From Candidatus Woesearchaeota archaeon (GTDB lineage: Archaea > Nanobdellota > Nanobdellia > Woesearchaeales > 0-14-0-80-44-23), in contig JAVZCZ010000001.1 in the NCBI GenBank assembly GCA_038874135.1, forward strand, positions 751,219 through 815,218: a stretch of 64,000 nucleotides of DNA. Direction: 5' to 3'. Positions 3,001 to 38,026 of this stretch are shown here, piece by piece (the stretch's first letter is position 1; each line of letters begins with the position of its first letter). The notes below the pieces were generated by a model. The model was not told the origin of the DNA. It searched no databases and saw only the letters and a program-made list of their open reading frames with translations. The position numbers were made by a program, and so were the translations under genes.

Positions 3001-3222
3001 GACTACCAAGAAGCCCTTGAACTTTATGATAAGATCTCCAAGGCATACTCACTGCTCCCTACAGAGTTCAAGTATGCAGTGTTCTCTGAATGTCTTGAGC
3101 TTCTAAACATTCTTGAAAGGGCAAGAAAAAACCAGAACAACTCTGAAAATCAAGCAGTAACCTTCAAAAAGAAAAAAAAGAGGTGCAGGTCAAAATCACA
3201 CGCCAAGGCGAGAAGGGCATAA
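1..3222 (+). CDS. Large glycoprotein-like surface protein with its N-terminus off-window. It has PKD-like and carboxypeptidase-regulatory-like Ig-fold modules, a C-terminal TM anchor and a helical cytoplasmic tail.
   Basis: ORF track gives 22..3222. The same frame is stop-free back to nt 1, so the true start lies upstream. 'YLWDFNNDN...GRYLVTLKVND' is PKD-like. 'ITVLNRLGEPLAGANITLGNTSAITNSSG' is CarboxypepD_reg-like. Module ends such as 'YNLTISCSDAAGNSAYT' recur. A hydrophobic stretch LAIQIVILVVLLTIYLVYTL lies near the C-terminus. N-x-S/T sequons are very dense. Confidence 0.75.
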   Translation, partial: CSYSSNYLEVQCSDEQAYGNASTYFYIFELPSVNTYEPNDSAIINSSSFQFEYEILPESSAYLVKNCALILDGTSCNSTDLPHNGTNSISCPFSEGSHTWKVLCTLIGSGQETIESQERGFFADYSPPNINLINPNQPAYNSDVPIEFNITDSASSSFNCTISGIPAPFNLSSLVSYSSKLNLPVGKYNLTISCSDAAGNSAYTWQEFERINLSVSTDKKYYIPMENVFITLNAPPSQTNISVSKGNFTLSKTTTPPYPIVYIFTSSNEPGDYLVQAFTTYNNITFTANTSFSVNITRNLTLSISANTTTAEPGVRILFYSNVSGNLTPVTYLWDFNNDNLPESSLPNTEYSFSQPGRYLVTLKVNDSYSSASASINITVLSRANLSITVLNRLGEPLAGANITLGNTSAITNSSGAAVMQNLLQGTYPINVTATNYNSYFNTVDISSNKNITIYLQELTEEPEILITEPTDGATITSLPITIRFKANLSYPTNCTLYKNEQQSWWEQLSQMAVTNNTENTLSVANLTDGQVLLRIVCTDVFGNSGTQQISLNISTLPKEPQYPELDQAEEELYTKQEYYNSIGPAQLEAAQLLGIPDMLSDAQNRLTLARRDLSDLSYSKKSPEEKEARKSEIISDAVSRINAIPDSIQVLSSYEQIHYPTQQELEKVAAPFISANSLKIDQRTFLRANSPLIELITINTKAFSIVLNYNGESREVSVIKHSVQLSQQLNESAISNLMLILNIPKQIADSAAGITFMDRYGQKVVKDDPIFSLPVTSEIVYQINKSIDANSASEISLLLVSKSASVSIPGISGLAVSQTRYSIWPFNLIGGKIGSSLAIQIVILVVLLTIYLVYTLQPEIISRSADALGNHIKNLRPRSENRMKQIVHAEKSIPTTLQNNLASMPQQQTYSPIQQQVVPIGPGMQHSYIAYRMQRALQLAEQNNYEEASAAYYELKFLYNTLSSHEKSLLYPQLLNLGHKLNISYIRQLVSEAKLKVNSDYQEALELYDKISKAYSLLPTEFKYAVFSECLELLNILERARKNQNNSENQAVTFKKKKKRCRSKSHAKARRA

Positions 3223-5564
3223 TTTGTGCTCTGCTTTTAGGAATTGTAACTATAATCTTAGGTAGTTATGCCTGCGCTTTGGAATTTTCACCATCTTCAA
3301 TTAACGAAGTGCTTTCTATTAACAAGTTTGTTCAGAAAAACATAACTTTGAAGAATGAACTCTCCTATCCGGTAAGGATTGCTCTGGTGCCCTCTTCTAA
3401 CATTAGCGATTTATTAGACATCACTCCAAATTCTATTGAAATCGGGGCAAGAGAGTCAAAGAATGTTCTGGTTACAATATACGGAAATGTTGATCCTATA
3501 AAATTTATTAATCGCTCGTATTACATCTTTAATGGCTTCATAAAGCTTGAAGGAGCTAACGCTCAAATACCTACGGACTTGATGGTCACTAATGGAACAA
3601 TAAACCTGCCCAGCAGCATGGTGCTTTCAGCATCGGCAGGTAAGGATTATTTCACTAAATCAGAAAATCTCTCTTTTATAATTGTTGTAACGAATCTTAT
3701 GACAGGCTCAAAACCAAATGTTACTCTTTTCTATTATTTCCTAATTGATAAAAACTCAGAAATTCCCGTTGGGAACGATTCCTTCATAATTACTACTTCA
3801 AAATCAGTTGTAAAGGAATTCATACCAATGTCTTCAATACCTGATGGCACCTATACTTTCAGGGTTGTAATGTCTTATGCAGATAAGAAGAGTGTTGCTG
3901 ATGTGCCCTTCAGGATATCAACCCCATTTATATTCAGAACATTCTTAGGTATAGCTGTATGGCAGTATATACTCGGAGTGATTGCCTTAATAATAATTGG
4001 CTTGTTAGTATACTGGCGAAGGAAGCGTGTTTTGGCTTCTCGTCGTTATGGTGTGAGTGTGGATTTGCGTAGTTTTCCTTCTTCTGGTAGGCTTGTGCGT
4101 TTGGGTAAGTTGGCGGAGTATGGGCGTGATTTTTGGTTTGATTTGGATGGTTTGACTACGCATTGTATTGTGGCTGGTGCTACTGGTGGTGGTAAGACTG
4201 TTGCTGCTCAGGTTTTGGTGGAGGAGGCTTTGAAGGCTGGTGTGGCTGTGGTTGTTTTTGATCCTACGGCTCAGTGGAGTGGTTTTTTGAGGCCTTGTTC
4301 TGATAAGGGTATGTTGTCTTTGTATTCGGGTTTTGGGTTGCGTCGTTCTGATGCTCGGGGTTTTCCGGGTAATGTGAGGCAGGTGTTGGATGCTCGTGAG
4401 GTTTTTGATGTTAGGCGTTTTATGCGTCCTGGTGAGATTGAGATTTTGAGTTTGAATAGGTTGAGGCCTGAGGAGATTGATGTTTTTGTGGCTAATACTG
4501 TTAGGAGCGTGTTTGATGCGGGTTTGGATGAGTGTCGTGAGTTGAGGTTGTTGTTGGTTTATGATGAGGTGCATAGGTTGTTGCCGCGTTTTGGCGGTTC
4601 TGGTGAGGGTTTTGTGCAGATTGAGAGGGCTTGTCGTGAGTTTAGGAAGTGGGGTGTTGGTGTTGTTTTGATTAGTCAGGTTTTGTCTGATTTTGTTGGT
4701 GAGATTAAGGCTAATATTAATACTGAGGTTCAGATGAGGACTCGTGATGAGGGCGATTTGGAGCGTATTCGTGTTAAGTATGGTGATGCTTATCTTAGGG
4801 GTCTTGTGAGGGCTAGTGTGGGTACTGGTATGTTTGAGAATCCCGGTTATAATGGTGGTCGTCCTTTTTTTGTTAGTTTTAGGCCTTTGTTGCATAGTGT
4901 GGTTCGTTTGTCTGATGCCGAGTTGGGTGAGTATAATAGGTTGAATGGGGTGTTGGATGATTTGGAGTTTTGGATTGGCGAGTTGGAGCGTTTGGGTGTG
5001 GACGTGTTTGATTTGAGGTTGGAGTTGAAGTTGGCTTGGGATAAGTTGAGGGTTGGGGGGTTTGGGATGGTGGATGTTTATGTTGAGGGTTTGAGGCCTC
5101 GCGTGTTGGGCGAGTTTGAGCGTTTGGGGAGGCCTGTTCCTAAGCGTGAGGTTAAACGCCTTTCAGATGAGGAGCTTGCAAAGCAGAGGAAGCTGGCTGA
5201 GCAGAGCCGTGCAGAGTTTATAAAAAAGATGGGCATTAAAGAGCAGCAGTCCAAGCAGGAGGAAAAGAAGGAAGAACACATCGTGCAGCCTTACACTTTT
5301 GATAATGGTGCAATGGTTTCGGAGCTTAAGGAGTTGAAAGACGCTATAGAACCTATGAGTGCTGACATCCTCAGAAGCGCGTTGAGTGGAAACAATAAGC
5401 TTTCTGATTGGATAAAGAATGAGCTTAAGAATGAGCAGCTTGCCTCTGAAATTGAGAAGGCGAAGACGAAAAAGGAGATTCTTGATGCAATAACTGCTGA
5501 ACTTGATAAAGCAGAAAAGAGCAGTGAGAAATCTGGAACTGATAAAGGCCAAAAGTCTAAGTAG
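3183..5564 (+). CDS. Membrane-anchored HerA/FtsK-superfamily (DUF87-like) P-loop ATPase, paralog 1. Order: signal-anchor, ~250-aa extracellular domain, TM, cytoplasmic ATPase, Lys/Glu-rich tail with a conserved C-terminal module.
   Basis: Walker A AGATGGGKT is at nt 4173-4199 and Walker B LLLVYDEVH at 4548-4574. 'REFRKWGVGVVLISQ' is a HerA/DUF87-type motif. The TM GVIALIIIGLLVYW is followed by RRKR (positive-inside). The track start is GTG 3183, which overlaps the upstream ORF by 40 nt, so the exact start is uncertain. Confidence 0.8.
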   Translation: MQVKITRQGEKGIICALLLGIVTIILGSYACALEFSPSSINEVLSINKFVQKNITLKNELSYPVRIALVPSSNISDLLDITPNSIEIGARESKNVLVTIYGNVDPIKFINRSYYIFNGFIKLEGANAQIPTDLMVTNGTINLPSSMVLSASAGKDYFTKSENLSFIIVVTNLMTGSKPNVTLFYYFLIDKNSEIPVGNDSFIITTSKSVVKEFIPMSSIPDGTYTFRVVMSYADKKSVADVPFRISTPFIFRTFLGIAVWQYILGVIALIIIGLLVYWRRKRVLASRRYGVSVDLRSFPSSGRLVRLGKLAEYGRDFWFDLDGLTTHCIVAGATGGGKTVAAQVLVEEALKAGVAVVVFDPTAQWSGFLRPCSDKGMLSLYSGFGLRRSDARGFPGNVRQVLDAREVFDVRRFMRPGEIEILSLNRLRPEEIDVFVANTVRSVFDAGLDECRELRLLLVYDEVHRLLPRFGGSGEGFVQIERACREFRKWGVGVVLISQVLSDFVGEIKANINTEVQMRTRDEGDLERIRVKYGDAYLRGLVRASVGTGMFENPGYNGGRPFFVSFRPLLHSVVRLSDAELGEYNRLNGVLDDLEFWIGELERLGVDVFDLRLELKLAWDKLRVGGFGMVDVYVEGLRPRVLGEFERLGRPVPKREVKRLSDEELAKQRKLAEQSRAEFIKKMGIKEQQSKQEEKKEEHIVQPYTFDNGAMVSELKELKDAIEPMSADILRSALSGNNKLSDWIKNELKNEQLASEIEKAKTKKEILDAITAELDKAEKSSEKSGTDKGQKSK
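4021..5176 (+). repeat. ATPase cassette copy 1. This 1156-bp block is identical to 8201-9356, and its coding strand is G+T-rich.
   Basis: Base-by-base reading matches 8201-9356 at an offset of 4180. The sense translation and the long antisense ORF translations (4005..4895 vs 8191..9075) are identical in the ORF track. Line 4081-4140 contains 6 A and 6 C out of 60 nt. Flanking line 3901-3960 contains 17 A and 13 C. Confidence 0.95.
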
Positions 5565-5674
5565 ATTTCTTATACCTTAACCAACAATGTGGTATTTATA
5601 AACTTAGATTACTTAGTATGCATTTATACACATACACTATTTGTGTCACATTTAAAAATTAGTATATAAAATGA

Positions 5675-5688
5675 AAATATTTATATAT
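5675..5688 (+). promoter_or_regulatory. Putative BRE/TATA promoter element AAATATTTATATAT upstream of the RHH-led surface operon.
   Basis: It lies in an AT-rich 175-bp intergenic region with a TTTATATA core ~65 nt upstream of ATG 5753. The identical 14-mer recurs at 27328-27341 upstream of another secreted-protein gene. Confidence 0.4.
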
Positions 5689-5752
5689 CAATATACATAT
5701 TTAGTATGAGTTTGTATTCAAAGACCTTGAAAAGGCTTTTTTGGGACCCGAA

Positions 5753-5941
5753 ATGCGCAGTACGCCTGAGAAGCATGGCTCAAAGAGAATAACCATAACC
5801 ATAAGCAAGGACCTTTTAGACTTCTTAGATTTAGCTGTGGAGAACAGGCTGTTCGCAAGCAGAAGTCATGCACTTGAAGTCTTAGTAAGGCGCAGGATGG
5901 AGTTTGAGAATGAAGCAAAGAATTACAATTACATTGGATAG
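5753..5941 (+). CDS. Ribbon-helix-helix (CopG/Arc-MetJ-like) DNA-binding protein 1.
   Basis: 'KRITITISKDLLDFLDLAVENRLFASRSHALEVLV' has the beta-strand plus two-helix RHH pattern. The ORF track begins at TTG 5741, and the first ATG is 5753. Confidence 0.7.
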   Translation: MRSTPEKHGSKRITITISKDLLDFLDLAVENRLFASRSHALEVLVRRRMEFENEAKNYNYIG

Positions 5942-6101
5942 TGAATGCCTGGCATGGGTTGATGAAAAGGTAAAGAATAGAAGCTTTGCTAATCGGAGCC
6001 ACGGCTTTGAATTTTTAATAGCGCGATTCAAGGAGCGCCAAGAACTTCAGAATCTTCTCAACTCGCGAAATTCAAAGGAGGAAGACTTAAAACATGAATA
6101 A
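5910..6101 (+). CDS. Ribbon-helix-helix (CopG-like) DNA-binding protein 2, a tandem paralog.
   Basis: 'QRITITLDSECLAWVDEKVKNRSFANRSHGFEFLI' is paralogous to the upstream RHH. The track start is TTG 5904 and the first ATG is 5910. It overlaps RHH1 by ~32 nt and overlaps the start of the 1180-aa gene by 8 nt. Confidence 0.7.
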   Translation: MKQRITITLDSECLAWVDEKVKNRSFANRSHGFEFLIARFKERQELQNLLNSRNSKEEDLKHE

Positions 6102-9100
6102 AAATCCTACCTTCAGGATACTGGAACGGGACAGGCAGCTGGAAAGGAGAAGACAGCAGCTGTACATCCTATTAGGCATCTTAGGAGTTTTACTAGCAGT
6201 TGGTGTTATACTTCTGATAAGAATGTTCATAGGATACGCAGTTCTGGAAAGCAGGGCTGGCACAATAACACAACTTAATATACAGCTCAGATACTCAACA
6301 CACATATGGGCTGGATTTTACGGATTGGCATTCCGCGTTCCCGGATACACTGAGCAGCAGTCTGCAGTTGCAGTCGGCGGCACAGTCTTCTTGCAGCACT
6401 TAGTATTTGACTGCTTAAAAACTACAGACGGCAACATTCCTGAGGTATATGCCAGTACTTCAAGAAACATTGACTGGAATTCACTCCAGCCAGCAACTCC
6501 AGACTTGATTGACAGCTACCTACAAGTAGATCCTTCAGATATAACCTCTGCTTCAAACACATTTACAGAAACAATGTCAATACTCTTAGGAGACAGAGAA
6601 ATCACAAATATTGCTGCAACGCACACCAAAAAGTTCGGAGTTCCGGACAGCACGGACTTTGATATAGGCTTCTTAAAAGATTCGTTGGGAAATCTCGTAT
6701 TTGTAACCCATGTAACTCCAACTTATACCAAAGGATTTAACAACCAAACTATAAACTACCAAATGCTCCTTCCAGTACAAGCAGGAACAGCTCCAGTATA
6801 CTACTTCTTCTCAGACCCATATGACGAGTGCCAAGCAGGGCTTGAAGCTCTCAAAAATGCTACCATATTCGGAAGAGCCATAGACAATGCAACAGGCCTT
6901 CCACTTGAAAATGTTACAGTTAATCTTCATACTGCTACAGTTCTTACCAACTCTACAGGAGACTATTACATAGCAATATTTAACGGCACCTACACCCTAG
7001 TAGCTTTCAAGCCGGGATATTACACCTTTGTTGCAACAAACATCACTCTCCCAGCTGACAATCTGTCTACACCTCAATCTGAAAATATTGTCGAATTTAA
7101 TATATCCCTCATTCCCAACCCTGGAAACCCAACTGGACTCGGAAACCTAACTGGCACTGTAACTGATAAAGACTTCGGAATACCCCTCTATAATGTAACA
7201 GTGTATGTAAACGGCAGAATCGCTAAGACAAACATTACAGGCCAATACCTACTTGAACTGCCAGCAGGAAATCATTCTCTTATAGCAATGAAGGAAAACT
7301 ACAGAACATACTACACTCCAAATGTAACTATACTGCCTGGAAACACCACTGAATTTAATTTCAGTATGGAATATGCAGAGCCAGAAATAAAAGAAACTCC
7401 TGGATATCCGCTAAATACCTTCGTTTCCAACCTACTCAAACAGGCAGTGCAGAGGCCTCAAATAATACTCACTCATAAGATTGATACAAAAGAGATATTT
7501 GAAACATTAAAAGTTGGCTCATATGTCCAGCGCTCATTCAATATAACGAGTTACAGGCCTGCCGAGTCCAAAGTTGAGTTTGAAGTCATAGGAAGTGCTG
7601 CACAGCTGGTAAAGGTTGACAAGAGCAGCTCAATAATACCTCCAAGGGGTGCAGAAAACTTCACCCTTACAATTCTAGCCAATGTGCCTCCAGGCATATA
7701 TACCGGAACATTCCTAATCAAAGGAGACCTTGAAGACAGAATCCCGATAAAGATAGTTGTTTATGAGAAGGATAGACTTCCAATAGAGGCTCTTCTCCTA
7801 GAAGTAGTGCCAATAAAAAAGATAATCAGCCCAGGAGAACTATTTGAATATAAGGTCAGCATGACAAACCTGCTGAGGGACACCCCATACAACATCACCC
7901 TTTCATACAATATCACCTCGCGCTCTTCAAATCTTACTATTCCCGTTGAAGAAGAGACGAGACTCTTGGAAACTCAGCTTTCCTACCTTAAGTATTACAA
8001 GCTTCCCAAAGACCTGCCAGAAGGAGAATACTTCCTTGAAACTAGAGCGGAATTCTTAGAACTATCAACAAACACAAAATCGCTATTCATAGTTAAGAAG
8101 CCAATTTACATGTATGCATTATTCGGAATACTTCCCCTCTGGCAGCTTTTCATAATAATAGTTTTCACCTCCCTCATGACCTTCGCAGGATTAATGTATC
8201 GGAAGCGTGTTTTGGCTTCTCGTCGTTATGGTGTGAGTGTGGATTTGCGTAGTTTTCCTTCTTCTGGTAGGCTTGTGCGTTTGGGTAAGTTGGCGGAGTA
8301 TGGGCGTGATTTTTGGTTTGATTTGGATGGTTTGACTACGCATTGTATTGTGGCTGGTGCTACTGGTGGTGGTAAGACTGTTGCTGCTCAGGTTTTGGTG
8401 GAGGAGGCTTTGAAGGCTGGTGTGGCTGTGGTTGTTTTTGATCCTACGGCTCAGTGGAGTGGTTTTTTGAGGCCTTGTTCTGATAAGGGTATGTTGTCTT
8501 TGTATTCGGGTTTTGGGTTGCGTCGTTCTGATGCTCGGGGTTTTCCGGGTAATGTGAGGCAGGTGTTGGATGCTCGTGAGGTTTTTGATGTTAGGCGTTT
8601 TATGCGTCCTGGTGAGATTGAGATTTTGAGTTTGAATAGGTTGAGGCCTGAGGAGATTGATGTTTTTGTGGCTAATACTGTTAGGAGCGTGTTTGATGCG
8701 GGTTTGGATGAGTGTCGTGAGTTGAGGTTGTTGTTGGTTTATGATGAGGTGCATAGGTTGTTGCCGCGTTTTGGCGGTTCTGGTGAGGGTTTTGTGCAGA
8801 TTGAGAGGGCTTGTCGTGAGTTTAGGAAGTGGGGTGTTGGTGTTGTTTTGATTAGTCAGGTTTTGTCTGATTTTGTTGGTGAGATTAAGGCTAATATTAA
8901 TACTGAGGTTCAGATGAGGACTCGTGATGAGGGCGATTTGGAGCGTATTCGTGTTAAGTATGGTGATGCTTATCTTAGGGGTCTTGTGAGGGCTAGTGTG
9001 GGTACTGGTATGTTTGAGAATCCCGGTTATAATGGTGGTCGTCCTTTTTTTGTTAGTTTTAGGCCTTTGTTGCATAGTGTGGTTCGTTTGTCTGATGCCG

Positions 9101-9636
9101 AGTTGGGTGAGTATAATAGGTTGAATGGGGTGTTGGATGATTTGGAGTTTTGGATTGGCGAGTTGGAGCGTTTGGGTGTGGACGTGTTTGATTTGAGGTT
9201 GGAGTTGAAGTTGGCTTGGGATAAGTTGAGGGTTGGGGGGTTTGGGATGGTGGATGTTTATGTTGAGGGTTTGAGGCCTCGCGTGTTGGGCGAGTTTGAG
9301 CGTTTGGGGAGGCCTGTTCCTAAGCGTGAGGTTAAACGCCTTTCAGATGAGGAGCTGCAGAAGGAAAAGGAGATTGCTATGCAGGAACATGAGAAAGCAA
9401 AACAGCAGGAAGCAGGACAAACTTCACAAAATTCAGATTCCAAGACAGAAACTTCCCAAATTCAAAACACAAAAGTTGAAGAGCAGCCCAGCCAAAATGA
9501 AAAGGCCGAGAACCAAGAGAATGCAAAATCCTCAAATGAAAATAAAATTAAAAGAGTAAGGGAGGGTAAAAAGCAGAGGATGAGGAAATCAGCAAGTTCG
9601 GAAAAAAATAATAAAAAAAGAGGTGCTAAAAAATGA
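6094..9636 (+). CDS. Membrane-anchored HerA/FtsK-superfamily ATPase, paralog 2. Order: N-terminal TM, ~650-aa extracellular region with CarboxypepD_reg-like and Ig-like modules, TM, the identical ATPase domain, acidic/basic low-complexity tail.
   Basis: N-terminal TM is LYILLGILGVLLAVGVILLI. 'GRAIDNATGLPLENVTVNL...GYYTF' and 'GTVTDKDFGIPLYNVTVYVNG...ENYRTY' are carboxypeptidase-regulatory-like. The second TM is LWQLFIIIVFTSLMTFAGLMY followed by RKR. The ATPase domain is identical to the one in 3183..5564. Confidence 0.8.
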   Translation: MNKNPTFRILERDRQLERRRQQLYILLGILGVLLAVGVILLIRMFIGYAVLESRAGTITQLNIQLRYSTHIWAGFYGLAFRVPGYTEQQSAVAVGGTVFLQHLVFDCLKTTDGNIPEVYASTSRNIDWNSLQPATPDLIDSYLQVDPSDITSASNTFTETMSILLGDREITNIAATHTKKFGVPDSTDFDIGFLKDSLGNLVFVTHVTPTYTKGFNNQTINYQMLLPVQAGTAPVYYFFSDPYDECQAGLEALKNATIFGRAIDNATGLPLENVTVNLHTATVLTNSTGDYYIAIFNGTYTLVAFKPGYYTFVATNITLPADNLSTPQSENIVEFNISLIPNPGNPTGLGNLTGTVTDKDFGIPLYNVTVYVNGRIAKTNITGQYLLELPAGNHSLIAMKENYRTYYTPNVTILPGNTTEFNFSMEYAEPEIKETPGYPLNTFVSNLLKQAVQRPQIILTHKIDTKEIFETLKVGSYVQRSFNITSYRPAESKVEFEVIGSAAQLVKVDKSSSIIPPRGAENFTLTILANVPPGIYTGTFLIKGDLEDRIPIKIVVYEKDRLPIEALLLEVVPIKKIISPGELFEYKVSMTNLLRDTPYNITLSYNITSRSSNLTIPVEEETRLLETQLSYLKYYKLPKDLPEGEYFLETRAEFLELSTNTKSLFIVKKPIYMYALFGILPLWQLFIIIVFTSLMTFAGLMYRKRVLASRRYGVSVDLRSFPSSGRLVRLGKLAEYGRDFWFDLDGLTTHCIVAGATGGGKTVAAQVLVEEALKAGVAVVVFDPTAQWSGFLRPCSDKGMLSLYSGFGLRRSDARGFPGNVRQVLDAREVFDVRRFMRPGEIEILSLNRLRPEEIDVFVANTVRSVFDAGLDECRELRLLLVYDEVHRLLPRFGGSGEGFVQIERACREFRKWGVGVVLISQVLSDFVGEIKANINTEVQMRTRDEGDLERIRVKYGDAYLRGLVRASVGTGMFENPGYNGGRPFFVSFRPLLHSVVRLSDAELGEYNRLNGVLDDLEFWIGELERLGVDVFDLRLELKLAWDKLRVGGFGMVDVYVEGLRPRVLGEFERLGRPVPKREVKRLSDEELQKEKEIAMQEHEKAKQQEAGQTSQNSDSKTETSQIQNTKVEEQPSQNEKAENQENAKSSNENKIKRVREGKKQRMRKSASSEKNNKKRGAKK
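8201..9356 (+). repeat. ATPase cassette copy 2, identical to 4021-5176.
   Basis: Evidence is the same as for copy 1. It is in the same codon phase in its host ORF. Identity ends at ...gatgaggagct, followed by g at 9357 versus t at 5177. Confidence 0.95.
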
Positions 9637-10457
9637 AGTCAAAAAAATCAGTTAAGTATAGAGCGAGAGTTCACAATAAGGCTAACTCAAGCAAGAAAGA
9701 TTTGAGAAAAAAGAAGGTTCGCATTGAGAGAAAAAATAGCACTAAAACAATTAGTAAAGAAACATCACCTAAAAAATCCAAAGCTTACTTAAAAAAGCGA
9801 TTTGGCAAGATTGATAACAGAGTTATTAAAAATAAAAATAATAAAGTAAAACCAGGAGCTTTAAAGCACAGAAAAAAAGAGAAGAAGCAGAATGTTCAAA
9901 AAAGAAGAAAAGCAATGCAAAAAAAGCCAGCGCCTGAAAACGCAGCCGCAGCAACCAACCAAGTACAGACAAATACGACTTCAACAGCTCAGCAGGCAAA
10001 TTCTCAAATTGAAACACATTCAGATGTGGAAGCGCTTCAAAAAGAATACTCAGATATCAACAGCTATCTGGTTCAGCGAAGAAAAGCGGGAGTTGACACC
10101 TTCATACAGGAACTGAAACTTTTTTCAATACCGTCAAAAATTCAGCTTTTAAAGGCAGAATACTCAAAAGATTATGCTGACAAGATTAGAGTTCAACTTA
10201 ATGAGATTAGAGAAGAGTTAGAAAAAGCAGAACCTCAACCGACCCCCCTTGACCTTCCTAAAGTTCAGCCGAACCAGCCGAATCCATTCTCAGAGCAACA
10301 GCTCACAAGTCAGAATAATAATCATCCCTTAACGCAGGATGCAGAAAACTATTCAAAAGAACTAGCTGAGAAGCGCCTTTCAAATAAAATAAAAAATTCT
10401 CTGAGAAATGCTTCCAAAAAAGTTATGTCCATATTCAAAAAAGGAGGTGGAAATTAG
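9633..10457 (+). CDS. Highly basic Lys-rich protein of unknown function.
   Basis: Long ORF with an ATGA overlap onto the upstream stop and GAGGTG 7 nt upstream of the ATG. The K/R-rich N-terminal half has no recognisable motif. Confidence 0.55.
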   Translation: MKSKKSVKYRARVHNKANSSKKDLRKKKVRIERKNSTKTISKETSPKKSKAYLKKRFGKIDNRVIKNKNNKVKPGALKHRKKEKKQNVQKRRKAMQKKPAPENAAAATNQVQTNTTSTAQQANSQIETHSDVEALQKEYSDINSYLVQRRKAGVDTFIQELKLFSIPSKIQLLKAEYSKDYADKIRVQLNEIREELEKAEPQPTPLDLPKVQPNQPNPFSEQQLTSQNNNHPLTQDAENYSKELAEKRLSNKIKNSLRNASKKVMSIFKKGGGN

Positions 10458-11615
10458 ATGTTCAACCTTTTCAAACGGAAAAACTCTGAAGAAGTTCCCA
10501 ATCAACAATCAGCTAACGAAGATCTGACAGCTCCAGCACAAACCCAGCAAACTGCTACTACGCAAGGACAGGAAAACCTCGCTGCAGAATTAATGAAGAT
10601 TAAGGCAGAAGTGGAAGCATTTTCAGATGTAAGAAAAGCCACAAATGAGAAACTTACAAGACTAAGCGAGCAGATTGGAGAGCTAAGAGCAATGATTGCA
10701 GACAGAGACAAGGTGATGAATCAGATAGAGGTTAAAGCTACAAAGGCAGCAGATCTCGTAGCCACAGTTAAGCCTGAAGAGCAGATGGTAGAAATAAAGC
10801 GTCAGGATGCAAAACTTGAAGCGTTTAAAGCATCTCTGGAGAGCAATGAACTTTTGATGAAGAGAGTTTTAGACGAACTTAAAGAGATGAGAACAAAGAT
10901 AGCTTCCTTCCGCGGAATTGAGGAACTAATCAACCTTAACAATGAAGTAAAATCTGAAATAATTGAAATAAAAAAGGTTGAAGCAAACATACAAAAGCAT
11001 GCAGACAAGGTAGAAACGATATTTGCAGAGGTTCAGAAAAGATTCGTTGACTTTACAAAAATTGATGATAGGATAGCATCCAACACGAAGCAAATAGCAG
11101 AGCTATCAAAGAACTTGGACGGAGTGAAGGCAACTGCCTCGGCAGCAGCCACAAAAAAGAGTGTAGATGAACTAACTTCCAAATTCTTAGAAATGAAAGA
11201 CCAACTCTCAGAACTGGTTTCAACAATAAACAAGCGCCTCTCCTTAGTGGAGAAGAACAATTCTGCAGCATTTGAAGCTTTTGAAAAAGCGATAATGCAC
11301 AAGTTTAAACTTTCAAAAGAGGAAGTAGCTGTATTTAAAGAGCAAGTACAGCAGAATCAGCAAGCCCAGCCAACTCAGCAAATATCCCAGCCGCAGGATG
11401 TCTCTCAAAAGAGCAATACTCAAGAGCAAAATCTTCAGACCAGTGAAGCACCCGAAGCTCTACCACAGCCGCAAGCCTCTCAGCAGGTTCAGCAGCCGCA
11501 GAGTGAGCCAAATGAGCAAGACTCAAAAAAGCCTGACAGCAGCATTCAGAAAGAGATAAGAGAAGCAGCCAAGTTTGCTAAAAGGATAAAAAGCAAAAAA
11601 AGAAAGAAGAAATGA
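10458..11615 (+). CDS. Coiled-coil protein with Gln/Pro-rich termini, unknown function.
   Basis: The ATG follows the upstream TAG directly, and GGAGGTGG lies upstream. Heptad-like E/K/L-rich sequence covers most of its length. The C-terminal tail is basic (KRIKSKKRKKK). Confidence 0.55.
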   Translation: MFNLFKRKNSEEVPNQQSANEDLTAPAQTQQTATTQGQENLAAELMKIKAEVEAFSDVRKATNEKLTRLSEQIGELRAMIADRDKVMNQIEVKATKAADLVATVKPEEQMVEIKRQDAKLEAFKASLESNELLMKRVLDELKEMRTKIASFRGIEELINLNNEVKSEIIEIKKVEANIQKHADKVETIFAEVQKRFVDFTKIDDRIASNTKQIAELSKNLDGVKATASAAATKKSVDELTSKFLEMKDQLSELVSTINKRLSLVEKNNSAAFEAFEKAIMHKFKLSKEEVAVFKEQVQQNQQAQPTQQISQPQDVSQKSNTQEQNLQTSEAPEALPQPQASQQVQQPQSEPNEQDSKKPDSSIQKEIREAAKFAKRIKSKKRKKK

Positions 11616-14600
11616 ATAGCTCCAAATTTTTCAAACTAATAATTTTAGGGTTTATAATAGTGGTAGGTCTCCTAAGCCAGTCAAAAGCAGACAGCATCCA
11701 AGCAGTATATGGCAATACTCAACTCATACTCACAGACAAGCCGCAGTACACTTTGGGAGAAAGTGTAAAGATAAACATACTAATCCCAACACAACTGCTT
11801 TCAGGAATGAATGTTGAAATAGATACCCCTGCTAGCAGATACCAACTTCTTGATTCAAATCTTTCAGAAGTATACTTCACTCCACAGCAAGAGGGAAACT
11901 ATACTATTAAAATATCTTCAGCAGCTGGGAATTTAATATCATCAACTTCTTTTTTAGTACTAAGAAAATCTGAAGTTGAAATTCCCTCATCAGATAGCAC
12001 CAGCCCCAAATTGTCTGCAAAAAACTGGAAGGGAAATTATCAAAAAATACTAAGACAGGAATACCTACCTGCCAACAAGAAGCTTTCAATAGAATTCTCA
12101 GAACTTTCAATACAGAAGATTGATTTTTACAATGTTTCAAATCCGAATGGAGAACTGAAAATAGAAGATGTGCCTCTATCTTATGTTGAAAACTTTTCAG
12201 GAAGAGCAGCGCGCTCATTTGCAATAGACCCAACTTTATTAGAATTTACTTATGCTGAAATTTACTTTACTGCAACTGCCAACGAGCTGTGGAAGTGCCG
12301 CGAATACGACTTCTCAACTAGAAGCTGCGCGGGAAGATATGTAAAAATAATGGACACCATTCCGGGCAGGCAGTATATCTTACACCTCACCAAAGAGGAT
12401 CCTCTCTACACAGAAGTATGGAACAATATAACCTGCACCTGCCAGAATACAGGCCCAAATAACGGCTGGGCATACTGCGAGGTATTCTGTCCGGTCAACA
12501 TTCCAATACCAACAGACGCTTTAGATGGATTCATTCAGATACTAGGCTATAATGTCACCATCACTACATCCTACCCGGCAGGCGGGTACATCACGCCTAA
12601 TTCTGGAATGCACTACGGCTTCTTTGATAGGGACCAGCTGAAAAGCAACGGAAACGAATCCCTAATAGGCTATGTGGCTTATGATGGCCCCGGAACAACC
12701 ACTCAGCTCATATACAACACCAGCATGGCACCGTCTGGAGCATATGCATTTAACAGGGCAAACTGCCCGACTTGGACCTCAGGATACTGCACCTGGTATG
12801 TATTTCTCAACTCAACTGCAAAGAGCAGCAAGGTTAAAAGGCCTGTGACTGTTAATATAACTCTTAATAGCATAAACTGGACTTGGAATTATACAACCCC
12901 TGCGCCTTCAAACATTACAATAAACCTTACAAGTCCAGCAGACAATACTGCCCTCGGATTTAGAAATGTGAATTTTTCCTATATTCCCATTTCAAGTTCT
13001 CCAGTTTCAAACTGCAGCCTTTTTATAAACATTACAGGTAGTTGGAATGCAGTTGCCACAAGCTACTCAATACAAAATAATTCTGTCAACAGTATAAATT
13101 ATACTCTTTCTAACGATGGCGAATACCTCTGGAATATCAGGTGTTATGCTGGAGACATCAGCAGTTTTGCACTATACAACAGAACTCTAATAGTTGATAC
13201 CGCACCCCCTTCAGTCACACTTCTTTCTCCTAACAATAACTCATTTTCTAACACATCTATAATCTCTTTCATTTACAATGTGAGTGACAACTTTAACATT
13301 GCTAACTGCTCATTAATACTGGACAATGTTCTAGTTGCAACTTCATACGCAGTTACTAAATATGTCCCGCAGAATATTACCTACGCGTTATCTAATGGCG
13401 TCCACAACTGGAGCATAACTTGTTTTGACTTTGCAGGCAATTTTAACATTTCCGAAAGTAGGATCATAAATATATCCGCAGTACCTACCATCTGGGACAG
13501 AAGGTGGTATGAAACTTCAACATCAGATTATACCTCTACAGCAAACATTTCTCTCGCAAATTTAAGGGACTCAACAGAAAATTCCATATCCGTTTCAGTT
13601 CCAGTTTCAACATCTTACACCCTTGTAGATGCGATTTCTCCATACATTGGAAGCAACGGGGCATTCGTTCCCAAAGGCACAAATGTATCTTTCAGCGGAG
13701 AATTCTCTACCAGCCCAAATGCAAAGGGAGTTATAAGCTGGTTCTTATACCAGACTGAGGGTTCAACAAAAAACCTTCTCTGTAATTACGGAAATGGCGG
13801 CTCGCTAGGCGCACCCATCTCATCAACAACAACTGCAAGCTGCACTATACAAAATGACACTCTAATGCTCCCAACAAATAGATTACAACTTATTATAATC
13901 TACTATAACAATTTCAAAAATTTAGTGTCTGTAACCCACTATTGGGATGGCACTAGGCTCTCGTTCGTTGAATTTTCAAACTTTACTACCTTAGGAACAT
14001 TAAGCGTTGACCTCTCCTATCCAGACACGGATATAACAGTGGGCCAGAACGAACTGTTCAATATGAGCTGCACAGTTAACTGCTCAGGAGGAAGCTGTCT
14101 TAACACACTCGTCTATGCACAGTATAACACGAGCTCAACGGCATTCACCAACATAGGAAGCTCCGGAAATCTCATTCTTAACACTGGAGAGACAAATCCC
14201 CATTCTCTCGGGAATATCAACCAGAGCTACACTACAACATTCTTAATAAAAGGAAACCTTGCATCAACAAACAACATAAGATGCGTAGCAGTTTCAAACT
14301 ATTCAAACGCTACAGGCCAGATTATAAGAAGGGTAGTTGTGGGGGACACTACGCCTCCAACAGTAAGTCTTGGAAATCCAGCAAACTTTTCTTGGCTGAA
14401 GAGTAAAACAGTAACAATCTATTACACGCCCTCAGACAACAGCGGAATTACTAACTGTTCAATATACTTGAATGATATTTTGAATTATACTCTTAATTCA
14501 GTTCCGAACGGGATTGAGCAGAACTTCACATTCCATAATCTTTCAGACGGACTTTACAATTGGACTGTAGCATGTACTGACAATTCGGCACTAACTACCA

Positions 14601-17600
14601 GGGCAGCTGAAAAATGGTTCTATATAGACACACAGAATCCCTCAGTAGAATTGCACCAGCCGGAAAACTTCATAGTTCTAGGAAGCAGCCTTGTGTTGTT
14701 CAACTTCACTGCATATGACGAAATGGCTTTCAACCTATCATGTAACCTGACAGCTGATAATATAATCAGAATTTCCGGCATAAACTCTCTAAACAGTACA
14801 CCTACAATAGTTAATTACACCCTTTCTATGGGGCAGCACTACTGGAATGTCACCTGTAGAGACCTTGCAGGAAACATTAACACGAGCGAGACTAGAACAT
14901 TTAATATAACAAACACTCCTCCTGAAGTTACCCTCATCTCCCCTCCTAACAACTACTGGGATAGAATAGGCAACATAACATTCATATTTAATGCCACAGA
15001 CACAGGCCTAATTTCAAACTGCTCACTAATAATAAATGGCCAGCTGAACCAGACTAAAAATTCAACTTTCTTAACTAACGGCATAAACAACTTTACTATT
15101 CTAAATATGGAATCGGGAGTTTATCTTTGGGAAGTAAACTGTACTGATGAGGGAAACCTGAGCACAATAGCAGGACCTTTCACGCTAAATGTTGATAAGA
15201 GCGTACCTTCTGTTCAGCTCGTATTCCCATCAAACTACTACAACTCCTCAGCTTCCTCTATTGTTCTGCAATTCATAACTACAGATGCTCATTCAGCAAA
15301 CCTCTCCTGCAACTTAACAATTGATGGCATTCTAAATTCAACAGACATAATAGCCCAAAATAATAGTTTAGTCTCACAGCCCATAACCTTCTATGATGGA
15401 ATTCACAATTGGAGTGTCTCCTGCTCTGATCTTGCTGGAAACCTGAATTCTACAAACACCTGGTATTTCAACATTTCAGAAAAACCTTCAGTATCGCTAA
15501 GCAGTCCTGCACCTAACGCCTGGACTAATGGTAATGTCACTTTCACATTTACAGCGTCTGACAATGACGGGCTTTACAACTGCTCTTTATTAATAAATGG
15601 AGCAGTCTATCAAACAAAGAATTCATCGCAACTTACAAATGGCGGACAGAACAACTTCACTGTAACAAATTTGCTTGAAGGAATAAACCAGCAGTGGACA
15701 GTAATCTGCTTTGATTTGGGAATATACAAGAACTTCTACTCACCATCTACAAGAATATTCCATGTGGATAAAACGCCTCCAGCAATAACTCTTAACTACC
15801 CTGCTGATTCAGCTCAGATAAAACAGAAGAATGTCAGCTTTAATTTCAGCGCCTCAGATAACTTCGCTTCTAACCTCTATTGCAACCTGTCCATAAACGG
15901 CCAGATTAACACTTCTGAAATAGCTGTTCAGTCAGGAAGTTCAGTTATCGTGAATGTTTCAGGATTTCCTAACGGTTTATACTACTGGAATGTCTCCTGT
16001 AGGGATTATGCTTACAATGTGAACTGGAGCGAGACAAATTCTTTTAATGTTTCAGTTCCTCCAGAGGTGTTTTTAGAATACCCCCTTGAAGGGCAGTGGG
16101 ACAATTCTGAGAATGTAACATTTTATTACTTAGTAACATCAAATGCAGAGTTACAGTCATGTTCTCTCATAATTAACGGGCAGTTAAATCAGACTGACAA
16201 TTCTCCAGTTAGTTCAGCATACAACAATTTTACCATTTTCCTAATGCCTGAAGGCTATTACACTTGGATGGTAAACTGCACTGATTCATATTGGCTAACC
16301 GGTTCTTCAAATTTGAGGAACCTCACCATTGACAGACAAGCTCCTTGGATAGTGCTAAATTCTCCTTCTAATTCTTCAATTGTTGACTCTAACTATGTAA
16401 CATTTAACTGGACTGCTTTTGACATGATGGCAGATAATATAAGCTGTGACCTATACGTAGATGATTATTTAAGAGAATCAGAAATATATTCTAAAAATGG
16501 AACACCTACCACTAGAACATACATATACTCTGACGGCACCTACTATTGGAATGTTTCATGTCGCGACCCTGCCTATAACATTAATTGGAGCCAAACTTAT
16601 AATTTCACTGTTGAGGCACCTCCAAATGTCACTCTCATAAGTCCTTCTAACTATAACTGGAGCACCGCTTATAGTATAACTTTTGCTTACTTACCTCAAG
16701 ACCCAATAGGGATAAGACAATGCACACTCTACTTTGATGGAAGCCCTAATCAGACTGATTACGACATAGAAGCTAACCAGCTGAATTATTTCACTATAAA
16801 TCCTATAAGTGAGGGAGTTCATACTTGGAGTGTTAACTGCACTGATTCAGATTGGAATACTTACATGCCGCCAGCCTTTACTCTTTATATTGACCGCACC
16901 CCGCCAACAATTGTTATAGAATCTCCTGTCAACCTGTCTGTTTTTTCAATTCCAGATGTAACCTTCAACTTTACTGCGATTGACATGTTATCAGATAATA
17001 TTTCGTGCAAAATAACTATAAATGGTAATTTGAACAGAACTATAACAGTACAGAATGATACTCCTTACAATTTCACGATTGTAAAAATGTCAGATAATAT
17101 CTATTATTGGAATGTGTCCTGCTCAGATTTAGCCGGAAATGCAAATGCTAGCAACACCATGCAGTTTACTGTAAGCGCTATTCCTTCAATAATTCCCATA
17201 TCGCCTGCCAACTTAAGTTGGAGTGAAGTATCACAGATAACATTTTACTTTAATGCAACCGACAACGATGGGCTTTCTAATTGCACTTTACTAATTAATG
17301 GTGTAGCAAATCAGACAAAATCTTCAGGTTTAATAAATGGTGGCATAAACAATATCACTTCTACTCTTACTGAAGGAGAATATGATTGGAGTATCGCTTG
17401 TACAGATTCGGGCATATTCTATAATCTCAACTTGTCCGCTCCTCAAAAGATTTTTGTTGATCTAAATTCCCCGCTGATTGTTCTTTACGCCCCTCTCAGC
17501 GGTAGCATTACTGAAAATAATTCTCCAGTTCTAAATTTTACTGCTTCAGACACGATGTACCCAATTATGTATTGCAACATTACTCTTGACGGAAAATTGA

Positions 17601-18652: not shown

Positions 18653-21600
18653 AACGCAGCATAACTTTTGGAATAATTTTTCTACTTTTAATAGCATTAT
18701 CTCTAAAAATTTCCAGTGCGAGCTGTCCGGAAATAATACTTTCATCCAACACCACTATAAAAGATGTAGATATAAAAATAAAAGTTTCAGGGCAGACACA
18801 AGAGTCAGAATTAGTGATAAGAACGCCTTCAGGTCCGTATCGTCTTTTAGGAGATATTCCTTCCCTTACAAGCTTTACTCCAAAAGATGTAGGTAACTAC
18901 TCTGTTGAAGTTTGGCAGGACAAAGTGCTGTGTGACATAAAAAATTTTACCGCACTACCTCACAATAACTCGACACTATTCCTTCCGCCAATACTTTCCA
19001 CAGATAAAAAAGAATACCACTTAGGTGAAGCTGTTAGAATTTCACTCTCACCAGAATATTACGGTTACTCAATTGAAGGTTTAAATTTAAAACTGTTGAC
19101 AGGACAGCAATCCTACTCTCTCTTAGGGGAAATATCTGAGGATATAGAATTCCGACCTGTTTTTGAGGGTAACTATACAATTCTCTTATTAGACTCCATT
19201 GGAAATACTCTTGCTTCTGAAAGCTTTTCCGTCTACGCTTTGAATAGTTACTTTGTTAATAACTTATCTATTAAAAAACGATTTTCGGACAAATTTGAAT
19301 ACAACATCAGCACTAATTCAGAAGACATGATTGTTGAATTCTCAAACTCCTTCATTAAAAGACTAAACCTAAAGAAACTATCTTCAAGTAATCTGGCGAT
19401 AGTTAGGATTTCAGAGTTACTGCCGGAAGAGAGGAGCCGTCTGAATATTCCTACAATTGGAGGTGAAATTAAAGAATCTTTTGAATTAGATCCTTCCGCC
19501 CTAAACTTTTCAGAAGGTGAACTAACAATTGTCCCTTCAGGAAATGAGCTGTGGAAGTGCACTGATTGGAATTATGATGCTCAGTATTGTGTCGGAAGTT
19601 GGATCAAGCAGCAGAATCTTGTTCCCGGTGTTGAAAATGTAATTAAGTTTAACCTTTCCGATCCAGGATATGCTATTGTTGCAACTGCTAACATAACTTC
19701 AATAGCAGCAGCAACCCTCTCTGAAAACTCTTTTGTAGTAGCATATTGCGATGATACAAATGATAGAACTGCTTTCAAGGTTTTCTGGGCTAATGGGAGT
19801 GTAAGAACTAATGAGGTGATAGTTGATTCAACTACTGGAAATTGTGGTTACACCTCAGTTTCTGTTTCAGCACTTACCAACAACTCTTTTGTTATCGGAT
19901 GGATTGATACTGCCAGCAGTTATGCCAGCTTCGCTGTTTATGATGCCTCTGGAAATGTTATTACTCCAAGGGTGGATGTGGATACTACTGCTGGTACTTC
20001 CCGTTCTGTGAGTGTGTCTGCTTTTAATAGTTCTGCTTTTGTTTTTGGTTGGTATGATCAGGCTTCTGCTTATGCTTCTTTTAGGACTTTTAGTTCTTCT
20101 GGTGTGGCTATTTCTTCTGTTGTTAATGTGGATACTACTGCTGGTACTTGTAATGCTGTTTCTGTTTCTGCGGTTAATTCTTCTGCTTTTGTTTTTGGCT
20201 GGTATGATCAGGCTTCTTCTGATATGACTTTTCGTACTTATACTTCTTCTGGCGTTGCGATTTCTGCCGTGACTGATGTGAATACTAAGGTGGGTACTGG
20301 TTCTTTTTCTGTTTCTGTTGCTGCTTATAATTCTAGTGCTTTTGTTATTGTTTGGTATGATCAGAGGCTGGGTTATGTTAGTTTTCGTCAGTATTCTGTT
20401 GCTGGTGTTCAGATTGGGAGTCAGGTTAATCCGGATACTGCTGTTGGGACTACTGCTTCTGGTGTTTTTGTTTCTTCTGTTGGTGTGAATTCTAGTGTTT
20501 TTGCTGTGGGTTGGAATGATTTGACTACTGATGTTGTTAGTTCTGTGAGGACTTATAGTGGTGCTGGTGCTGCTGTTTCTTCTGAGGTGGTTGTGCAGGC
20601 TAATGCTTTGAAGTATAATGCTCTTGCCGGCTACTACCCTGCTACAGGCATAGGTTTCTGCAATGGAAACTTTGTAGCAATAATTGTTAATACTTCTTCG
20701 CAGGCATTTTTTAAAGCATACATGCCTAATGGAAGCGAATGGGACGGAAACTGTCCTGATGTTATACCGCCTCAAGTTGTTCTGAATAGTCCTCAGCAAG
20801 CCGCTGTCTTCTATAGTGATACTGTGGATTTTAATTTTACAGTAACCGACAATGTAGATTTAGTAATTCCAAACTGTACCCTTTGGATAAACACTTCATC
20901 AACATTCTCTCCAAACATAACAATTTACAATATAACCTCTAATAAGATGAACAACATAACTCTATCTCAAATTCCAGACAACAAATACATTTGGAATGTC
21001 AGGTGTTATGACAATGCAGGCAACTCAGCATTTGCTTCTTCAAATTTTTCATTATTTATCAACAAGAATCCACCTCAAATCTTGAACCCCCTCCTGAATG
21101 AAAGTACAGTAAATCAGAGCCATTCAGTAAAGTTTAATGTCTCAATAACCGATTCATATGGTATAGACTCTGCATATATAACTATGATGTACCCAAACGG
21201 TTCATCAAATAATTATTATCTTAATAGAAGTGGGAATGAATTTTACTTCATAATTAATAATACAATCCAGATAGGAACATATTCTGTGATATATGTGTGG
21301 GCTAATGATACCCTCGGACAAAACTCTTCTCTAACCCTTTCAGATCTCCAGTTTAATGTCACGCCTTCACCACCTGCTCAATTCAACCTTTTAAGTCCCC
21401 CGAATGCAACAGAGTCAACAAACCTGCGACCAAACTTGACTTGGGAGACATCTTACGATGAGACATTCCTTAATTATACTATTCAGATTTCTCAGGATGA
21501 AAACTTCGCAACAGTACTCTTTACATATTATAATCCGGGTGTTTATAATACTTCAAGAGTGCTGGATTATGCCCTAGAAGCGAATAAGAAATATTACTGG

Positions 21601-37870: not shown

Positions 37871-38026
37871 TTAAAGCTTTATCTTTGAGACAAGGTTGTT
37901 GTCTCTTTTTACTGCCTCTTCAATTGCCTTTTGCAGGTATTCTTTTAGGGTTGTGTTCTTGAGAAAGGCGATGACCTTAGCTTTTGTGTGCAGGTCCTCG
38001 CTTAGGTCTAGATTTATCTTTTTCAT
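37871..38026 (-). CDS. Small (51 aa) ribbon-helix-helix-like protein heading the minus-strand surface-protein operon. It is below the ORF-track size cutoff.
   Basis: My manual translation is MKKINLDLSEDLHTKAKVIAFLKNTTLKEYLQKAIEEAVKRDNNLVSKIKL. The pattern is a short beta-strand (INLDL) followed by two helices. The stop lies 1 nt before the 844-aa gene's start codon. Confidence 0.55.
   Translation of the reverse strand: MKKINLDLSEDLHTKAKVIAFLKNTTLKEYLQKAIEEAVKRDNNLVSKIKL

Follow-up and report, generated by a model that had tools for sequence, protein, structure and literature searches.

In a 64-kb stretch of a Woesearchaeota (DPANN) genome, hereafter the window, three small genes predicted to encode ribbon-helix-helix (RHH) DNA-binding proteins precede genes for large membrane or surface proteins. 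Two of them, the overlapping twins RHH-a and RHH-b, lie on the plus strand directly ahead of the gene for a transmembrane ATPase, here called ATPase-2, and of giant surface-protein genes; the third, RHH-c, lies on the minus strand ahead of genes for proteins of 844 and 552 amino acids (aa) (Table 1). The genomes of DPANN archaea are tiny and encode few recognisable transcription factors, and we know of no member of this lineage that has been grown or genetically manipulated. Giant surface proteins are thought to mediate host-cell contact, and their control is the question addressed here.

Table 1. Positions of the RHH genes, their operons and the predicted regulatory sites (window numbering unless another locus is named).
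Feature	Coordinates	Strand	Remarks
ATPase-1	3183..5564	+	793-aa transmembrane HerA-type ATPase, last gene of the upstream module
Distal predicted operator sites	5613..5666	+	TTAGTATG (5613-5620) and TTAGTATA (5659-5666)
Predicted B recognition element (BRE)/TATA	5673..5687	+	GAAAATATTTATATA; twin-RHH operon; by sequence inspection
Proximal predicted operator	5701..5718	+	TTAGTATG (5701-5708), then degenerate TTTGTATT (5711-5718)
RHH-a	5753..5941	+	62 aa, upstream twin, RHH domain alone; ATG 5753, stop at 5941
RHH-b	5910..6101	+	63 aa, downstream twin; ATG 5910, stop at 6101
ATPase-2	6094..9636	+	1180 aa; extracellular CarboxypepD_reg, one transmembrane segment, cytoplasmic HerA/FtsK-superfamily ATPase
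Rest of operon	9633..26487	+	274-aa, 385-aa (coiled coil), 2346-aa and 2612-aa proteins; Ig-domain giant surface proteins
844-aa and 552-aa genes	33680..37869	-	single-pass membrane or surface proteins
RHH-c	37871..38026	-	51 aa, RHH of a different family
Imperfect palindrome	38038..38054	-	TTCGGGAATTTCCGAGG; between TATA box and RHH-c start codon
Predicted BRE/TATA	38084..38101	-	ATAGAAAACTATTTAAAT; RHH-c operon
First-module RHH pair	L001 3420-3596 and 3577-3798		about 300-670 nt upstream of window position 1; 20-nt overlap

The twins are read in different frames, RHH-b being +1 relative to RHH-a, and share the 32 nt from 5910 to 5941; the bases of the RHH-b start also encode the C-terminal tail of RHH-a, ENEAKNYNYIG. 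The ATG of ATPase-2 lies inside the end of RHH-b, which gives a further overlap of 8 nt. An initial annotation of the window had described two paralogous genes in this arrangement, and its coordinates, frames and overlaps agree to the base with the list of open reading frames (ORFs), in which the mechanical ORF of RHH-a opens earlier, at TTG 5741. The paralogy is borne out by 46% identity over 46 residues (E = 3e-12), and orthologues of RHH-a (P0003, P0006, P0007 and P0009) are 69-89% identical to it. Motifs of the GGAG type precede RHH-b and ATPase-2, and RHH-a has no obvious Shine-Dalgarno sequence. The same annotation had placed a 51-aa RHH-like ORF 1 nt before the 844-aa gene, which starts at 37869 and whose end (35335) overlaps the start of the 552-aa gene (35338) by 4 nt; these positions are likewise exact. 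It had called this third gene unannotated, which is true of the ORF track it used and not of NCBI: all three small genes are called in the near-identical Woesearchaeota metagenome-assembled genome GCA_038731275.1, where RHH-b, identical in sequence, is named 'ribbon-helix-helix domain-containing protein' and RHH-c 'hypothetical protein'. A single residue separates RHH-c of the window from its counterpart P0086 in that genome (I49 vs M49), so the window belongs to an assembly that is close to it but distinct.

RHH similarity of the twins held up in profile searches. NCBIfam models of the NikR N-terminal region match both proteins (E = 1.6e-6 for RHH-a and 5.6e-5 for RHH-b), the matches spanning only positions 1-48 of models 129-139 long and the N-terminal 45 residues of the proteins, with scores of 28 and 23 bits against equivalog cutoffs of 83-175. 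With Pfam RHH_1 (PF01402), RHH-a scored 15.2 bits and RHH-b 13.7 bits for a cutoff of 20.5, and profile positions 1-36 of 39 were covered. Pfam was not taken as the sole arbiter, since all three small proteins are sub-threshold there, and the matter was settled by NCBIfam, profile searches against Protein Data Bank sequences, AlphaFold2 and Foldseek. Escherichia coli NikR (1q5v) aligns with RHH-a residues 11-50, and the family profile A2, built from an alignment of 42 members, recovers the same protein with E = 2.1e-6, pairing RITITLD with RVTITLD and FANRSH with YNNRSE (family/NikR). The R-I-T-I-T and F-A-N/S-R-S-H motifs are invariant or nearly so across the 42 members, and E residues are also invariant. 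The alignment also served as input for an AlphaFold2 model of RHH-b (predicted local distance difference test, pLDDT, 89), which is extended at residues 1-10 and helical at 11-22 and 29-61, a beta-alpha-alpha order; RHH-a aligns to the modelled protein across the whole domain. The top Foldseek matches of the model are all RHH proteins, namely NikR (probability 0.98), ParD, CopG, MazE-mt1 and Arc.

Sequence and predicted fold thus indicate that RHH-a and RHH-b are NikR-type RHH domains lacking the nickel-binding domain. We rejected their identity as NikR itself: the proteins end at 62 and 63 residues, and they have no C-terminal ACT-like domain, the part of NikR responsible for nickel binding and tetramer formation. 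For that reason a response to metal is not expected. As RHH domains, the twins would dimerise through the strand and bind DNA sequence-specifically in the major groove.

RHH-c is recognised mainly by its predicted fold. Its match to Pfam ParD has E = 0.008 (17 bits for a cutoff of 27.3), the profile A3 aligns weakly, in register, with ParG (E = 0.058) and SvtR (E = 0.52), and a further weak match is to DUF6290. The AlphaFold2 model (pLDDT 84) is extended at 1-9 and helical at 10-22 and 27-49, again beta-alpha-alpha, and its leading Foldseek matches are RHH structures only, with CopA_SO first (probability 1.00, template modelling score, TM, 0.76-0.80) and ORF56, Arc, PutA and FitA among the others. 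Ten homologues were found, so far only on Woesearchaeota-type contigs, three of them with a precomputed HicB (PF05534) match. Between RHH-c and the twins BLASTP found nothing and hhalign gave a probability of 2%, which rules out kinship by these measures. RHH-c is an RHH protein, above all by its predicted fold, and belongs to an unrelated family.

The order RHH-c, 1002-aa gene, 554-aa gene recurs in full in locus L008, a close relative; in L010 the large gene after RHH-c runs off the contig, L009 has no large gene called beside RHH-c, and in L011, which is more distant, three genes of 214-246 aa follow RHH-c. Its predicted promoter, ATAGAAAACTATTTAAAT, is invariant at all but one position in the five aligned loci (window, L008-L011). 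The initial annotation had pointed to positions 38027-38191 as a place for operator repeats. A conserved imperfect palindrome, TTCGGGAATTTCCGAGG, does lie there; it is kept in L008-L010 and is a perfect 8+8 in L010. It is a candidate operator but may be an RNA hairpin: the predicted RNA fold is weak in the window (-7.1 kcal/mol, z = -0.85) and better in L008 (-14.4, z = -2.2) and L010 (-18.1, z = -3.5). The palindrome could be either an operator or a hairpin of the 5' untranslated region. A second palindrome further upstream in L008-L010, ATTACTTTAGTAAT, is not kept in the window.

Promoter and GTATG boxes upstream of the twins

ATPase-1 and RHH-a are separated by a promoter-bearing spacer of 188 nt. 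A TATA box occupies 5680-5687, with GAAAATA just before it; a sigma-70 promoter scan was set aside as inapplicable to an archaeal host. The block TTTATATATCAATATACATATTTAGTATG is identical in the window and in L012, which is a different species, and an element gAAAC(a/c)TTTATATA stands ahead of the boxes in most loci. Repeats had been anticipated in the spacer (5565-5752), and they were found there: three copies of TTAGTAT, compared with 0.06 expected from the window-wide count (P = 3e-5); an inverted pair GTATG-N10-CATAC at 5616-5635, within which the distal TTAGTATG falls; and proximal boxes, 16 nt past the TATA box, whose GTAT cores are spaced by 10 bp and which cover the predicted start of transcription. 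Judged by its motifs, this is the layout of an autoregulated leader, with boxes downstream of the operon's own TATA box. Rfam detected no known RNA family at the twin locus or at the RHH-c locus, its only matches being four tRNA genes in other parts of the window.

The same boxes accompany the family elsewhere. In 80 upstream regions drawn from loci L001-L090, AGTATGTA was present in 48, compared with 1.6 expected from shuffles. It occurred 74 times in the 15.4 kb of sequence lying no more than 200 nt upstream of RHH genes and 42 times in the other 1.1 Mb, a 126-fold difference in density. Among these 42 copies, 19 are isolated within ORFs, where there is no excess, and nearly all others are distal, often palindromic copies of the form TACATACT(T/A)AGTATGTA, 200-450 nt upstream of an RHH gene. 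Only about 4 of the 116 copies are intergenic without an RHH gene within 450 nt. The box consensus, (T/A)AGTATGTAR, covers 8-10 bp; successive boxes are exactly 10 nt apart in 19 of 30 pairs, boxes most often start 7 nt past the TATA box, and a median of 13 nt separates the end of the last box from the ATG.

Archaeal repressors commonly act at the transcription start site. The boxes of the twin operon would cover this site, because archaeal TATA boxes are found about 28 nt before it (PMC8553660). The E. coli NikR site is GTATGA-N16-TCATAC (PMC7055735). Its half-site core is the GTATG core of the boxes, which fits the R-x-T-x-T reading strand that NikR and the twins have in common. From distribution, spacing and half-site together we infer that the GTATG boxes are a conserved autoregulatory operator, as predicted from sequence comparison.

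Several further observations concern these upstream regions. An element ATATACTTTTTTCTATACTAAT is found between the distal GTATG sites and the proximal ones in L013, L027, L031, L034, L040, L045, L049, L065 and L073, loci in which twin RHH genes are followed by a HerA-type gene, or likely so (in L034 the downstream gene ends with the contig); the window has a related ATTAGTATATAAA at 5658-5670, in opposite orientation. The ATG at 5706, within the box (5706-5708), begins an upstream ORF of 29 codons, out of frame with RHH-a and overlapping its start. Topoisomerase I of the window has a single TTAGTATG box at 44764-44771 (minus strand) that includes its start codon, with no RHH gene there; this gene may be part of the regulon, unless the box is there by chance.

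The twin family and the cluster in which it lies

Scanning one genome per species gave 79 species-level loci with the twin-RHH family, which numbers 85 homologues; ORFs were called in all of these loci and their products searched with hidden Markov models. With 84 clusters at E <= 1e-10 among 1.84 billion representative proteins, the family is small. Most loci belong to Woesearchaeota and Nanoarchaeota, with distant relatives in Thaumarchaeota. The family was met once among the 2.9 million viral contigs of IMG/VR. This, together with the housekeeping genes of the window (NOG1, L10e and topoisomerase I, which place it on an archaeal chromosome), makes a mobile-element or viral origin unlikely. 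The thaumarchaeal relatives (Nitrososphaerota; L082, L084-L086, L088 and L089) are single-copy genes with 40-48% identity and carry an upstream palindrome, ATCCTAC-N3/4-GTAGGAT, instead of GTATG boxes, which suggests that the family protein and its site co-diverged.

A family RHH gene nearly always overlaps or abuts the next gene, which is usually large. Two adjacent copies occur in 28 clusters (three in one of them) and single copies in 53. A HerA-fusion gene of 1000-1600 aa comes next in 17 of the 28 twin clusters and for 2 of the 53 single copies (Fisher P = 2e-8), several of the remaining twin clusters being interrupted by contig ends. Single copies precede giant Ig or CarboxypepD_reg proteins (1800-3300 aa), and also ABC-transporter ATPases (about 230 aa) and beta-CASP RNases (about 418 aa); one twin pair stands directly before topoisomerase I (L057 9983-12502). 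The order ATPase-1, spacer, twin RHH, ATPase-2 is kept in L005, L006, L012, L021 and L049, which are distant DPANN loci, and L072 shows the same ATPase arrangement with a single RHH copy.

Of 51 twin members, 41 find their best match in the member at the same position in another locus (P = 1.5e-5), which indicates that the duplication is old and that both copies have been maintained. Recent duplication, or homogenisation of the twins by gene conversion, was rejected on the same positional orthology and on identities of 0.64 within loci vs 0.61-0.62 between loci. The overlaps, mostly 4, 29 or 32 nt in 27 clean twin pairs, are part of what is conserved: in many lineages the tail of the upstream twin (ENEAKNYNY, NEGKNNNN) is the alternative-frame reading of the downstream MK(Q/E)RITIT. 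A gene overlap of 29-32 nt can thus persist over deep divergence, the tail of one protein being an other-frame reading of the DNA-reading strand of its partner. A programmed frameshift that fuses RHH-a to RHH-b was set aside because the overlaps measure 4, 11, 17, 23, 29 or 32 nt or are absent, so that the frame relation is +1 or -1 depending on the locus.

In the window the twins stand inside a plus-strand cluster of two modules that begins before window position 1 on the NCBI contig. The first module comprises a 58-aa RHH gene, an overlapping 73-aa RHH-like gene, a 1172-aa PKD surface protein and the 793-aa ATPase-1. Its RHH pair is of a different subfamily; the 58-aa protein scores 24.1 bits with Pfam RHH_1, over the cutoff, and a 91-aa orthologue of the 73-aa protein in L006 scores 19.3 bits. 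In the second module, ATPase-2 has Pfam matches to CarboxypepD_reg (4e-22), DUF87 (5e-9) and HerA_C; its matches to HerA, CedD, TraD, TrwB and VirB4 models are weak and at P-loop level only. The genes from 9633 to 26487 abut or overlap by 4 nt at their junctions, their order is the same in L001 and L003, and the giants carry Big_7, Big_13 and CARDB domains. No toxin-family gene, relaxase or nickase gene or oriT-like element (origin of transfer) was seen in the cluster. Literature searches returned no description of this RHH family in DPANN, of its box or of a HerA/giant-protein cluster of this kind; the arCOG01314 'secretion' cluster (Makarova et al.) is MoxR-based and not the same system.

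The initial annotation has to be narrowed on this evidence. The twins head the second module of the plus-strand cluster, not the whole of it, the first module having its own RHH pair. Small RHH genes do lead tightly coupled operons for large membrane or surface proteins on both strands, with the same restriction to the second module on the plus strand. Control of surface-protein expression had been called dedicated and autoregulated: 'dedicated' falls with the family members that precede ABC ATPases, beta-CASP RNases and topoisomerase I, and autoregulation survives as a reading from comparative genomics.

Two observations touch other parts of the cluster. Upstream of the first-module RHH pair, TTGTCATACA occurs twice, 60 nt apart, and contains the NikR-like TCATAC. 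By eye, the C-terminal cytoplasmic ends of ATPase-1 (5330-5560) and of the 844-aa protein (35340-35560, minus strand) are alike (...S/ADWI+xEL/I+...LA...KEE/ILxxI), and weak Pfam DUF5752 matches were found in the 844-aa tail and in a free-standing 164-aa protein (26656-27150); these proteins may have a docking tail in common.

Proposed autoregulation and its alternatives

We consider it likely, on comparative sequence evidence, that the twin RHH proteins, as dimers, occupy the phased GTATG boxes over the core promoter and thereby repress the operon that encodes them. RHH-a and RHH-b would pair through the beta-strand, each with itself or possibly with the other; an a/b heterodimer is plausible from the old positional orthology of the twins and their coupled synthesis. 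The dimers would bind the boxes of their own promoter, two of them phased by 10 bp downstream of the TATA box and more at 40-90 nt upstream, and the DNA so occupied between TATA box and start site would block recruitment of RNA polymerase. In this way the operon at 5753-26487, which encodes RHH-a, RHH-b, the HerA-fusion ATPase, two mid-sized proteins and two giant Ig-domain proteins, would repress itself; because the overlapping junctions would couple translation, the dose of regulator would track expression of the operon. RHH-c would do the same for the operon of the 844-aa and 552-aa genes, through a different site. The proposal is concrete in that it names a family of 45-65-aa proteins, a box of 8-10 bp and a defined promoter layout upstream of a two-module HerA/adhesin cluster.

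As a type of regulator the predicted system is a conventional self-regulating switch, and its added interest lies in the conserved twins, their long overlap and the lineage-wide operator. NikR (1Q5V/2HZV) is the best match in sequence and fold, with the strand QRVTITL corresponding to K/Q-RITITL of the twins and N-R-S at the start of helix 2. The twins differ from it in lacking the C-terminal nickel-binding domain and in the arrangement of their sites, which are direct repeats 10 bp apart with distal inverted copies, whereas NikR half-sites are 16 bp apart. CopG of pMV158, Arc and Mnt of P22, omega of pSM19035 and MetJ resemble the twins in being RHH domains alone, of about 45-70 aa, encoded by the first gene of the operon that they repress. 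In CopG/Arc-type systems short subsites recur along one face of the DNA, and several dimers occupy them. Those regulators, however, come from one gene and form homodimers, whereas the twins are two overlapping paralogues conserved together, in an archaeon with a TATA/BRE promoter, with a 20-kb surface-protein/ATPase operon as cargo. Among archaea, the small RHH gene cdrS is co-transcribed with ftsZ2 at the head of its operon, and CdrL, encoded just upstream, binds the operon promoter (PMC7439475). This is an archaeal precedent for an RHH gene at an operon head together with a second RHH protein. DPANN is the one major archaeal group in which CdrS was not detected (PMC7439475); CdrS belongs to another RHH clade, CdrL has a zinc ribbon, the two are not described as overlapping paralogues, and their target is cell division.

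Several points weigh against autoregulation as proposed. Pfam RHH_1 scores of both twins are under the gathering cutoff, the sequence evidence for RHH-c is sub-threshold as well, and the candidate site of RHH-c may be an RNA hairpin. The proximal site of the window is weaker than the consensus, consisting of one good and one degenerate box, and stands 16 nt after the TATA box where the family mode is 7 nt; the transcription start itself is a prediction only. The evidence does not separate homodimers from heterodimers, or repression from activation. Finally, the boxes may have a second or different role, as start-stop mini-ORFs if transcribed.

This last point belongs to an explanation that we consider quite unlikely, namely that the GTATG repeats are a general promoter or leader element, or mini-ORFs that act in translation, with the RHH proteins working elsewhere. 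It draws on the finding that 54 of 99 boxes read ATG directly followed by TAA or TAG, and that in six loci the last box provides the RHH start codon. TGA, however, follows the ATG only once, so that what recurs is TAR as part of the motif, not a stop codon of whatever kind; the inverted and palindromic copies 200-450 nt upstream cannot act in translation; and the 10-bp phasing and the NikR half-site match fit protein binding. A general promoter element is rejected by the near-confinement of the boxes to the upstream regions of the RHH family described above. There is hardly any chance that the small ORFs are fortuitous or annotation artefacts that are not expressed. They are short, RHH-a has no clear ribosome-binding motif, and a 32-nt overlap is unusual in prokaryotes, but this idea is refuted by the conservation of the proteins in 79 loci with invariant R, T, F-A-x-R-S-H and E residues, and the confident fold predictions, the conservation of the overlap itself with its alternative-frame tails, and the GGAG-type motifs before RHH-b and ATPase-2 also argue against it.

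The tie between twins and HerA-fusion genes raises a different possibility. RHH proteins such as TraY and the relaxosome proteins TrwA and TraM are DNA binders that cooperate with coupling ATPases during conjugation, and TraY of F-like plasmids has two RHH repeats in one chain. By analogy, two RHH units beside a membrane ATPase of the FtsK/HerA superfamily could be accessory DNA-handling factors of HerA/FtsK/TraD-like ATPases, with transcription a side role at most; the ATPase matches to TraD, TrwB, CedD, VirB4 and HerA models, and the pairing of two RHH genes with one such ATPase in both modules, point the same way. We regard this as unlikely. In TraY the units are fused and serve oriT processing, whereas no relaxase or oriT was seen beside the twins; the ATPase matches do not go beyond the P-loop; the same family and boxes occur before ABC ATPases, beta-CASP RNases, giant adhesins and topoisomerase I, where there is no translocase; and the boxes sit in promoter geometry, from TATA box to start codon. 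Type II antitoxins, or degenerate remnants of toxin-antitoxin modules, are very improbable identities for the small ORFs. An NCBIfam model of MazE-type RHH antitoxins does match RHH-b (E = 1.5e-5), RHH-c has weak ParD, HicB and DUF6290 matches, and its best fold match is the antitoxin CopA_SO; in fold and length it resembles ParD, CopA_SO, MazE-mt, ParG, SvtR and ORF56 (probability 0.9-1.0, TM 0.7-0.8), and its strand-helix register is that of ParG and SvtR. These matches, however, span the shared RHH fold only. Gene context largely refutes an antitoxin identity: no toxin adjoins these genes, the next ones encoding an ATPase of 1180 aa and a surface protein of 844 aa, the synteny with large genes is kept across species, and the family was met a single time in the viral contigs. 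RHH-c likewise has neither a toxin nor a partition ATPase as partner and is chromosomal and coupled to surface-protein genes.

A more far-reaching form of the proposed autoregulation seems to us possible though rather doubtful. RHH-a and RHH-b would form an obligate heterodimer, a split counterpart of TraY, and the regulator with its GTATG boxes would be a portable cassette that has spread to several operon heads in one DPANN genome, all drawing on one repressor pool, since neither the DNA-reading strand nor the box differs between copies. If true, a minimal global circuit would link the HerA-translocase/giant-adhesin apparatus, a candidate host-cell contact machinery, to transporters, an RNase and a topoisomerase.

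Repeat tracts and tRNA genes of the window

The genes for the two HerA-type ATPases have in common a 1164-nt segment that is 99.8% identical (4021-5183 and 8201-9363). A second repeat pair, 19842-20652 and 30423-31233, is 94.5% identical and links the 2612-aa gene with a 752-aa gene. These four tracts alone in the window have almost only G or T at codon position 3. In the ATPase tract position 3 is A in 0.8%, C in 2.6%, G in 41% and T in 56% of codons, and the flanking parts of the same genes are normal; leucine is encoded by TTG in 43 of 46 codons, and the amino acids are shifted towards those with G/T-rich codons (R 45 vs K 12, V 45 vs I 10). L012, 80.7% identical to the window in the tract, shows both the conversion and the G/T bias, and 51 of the 56 synonymous third-position differences between the two are exchanges of G and T. 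Five other lineages with both ATPases show neither conversion (45-55% amino acid identity) nor bias. These data suggest gene conversion or concerted evolution of the tracts, coupled to loss of C and A from the sense strand at neutral sites.

Opposite the tracts, on the minus strand, run long ORFs of 274-310 aa (4005-4895, 8191-9075, 19867-20799 and 30460-31284) with low-complexity products rich in T, N, K, P, Q, H, I and L. We rejected them as real genes and take them as by-products of the third-position bias, because the missing A at sense position 3 removes antisense stop codons.

Elsewhere in the window four tRNA genes were detected, at 51848-52245 and 57323-57394. Two of them are unusually long (86 and 107 nt), and these lengths suggest that they contain introns.

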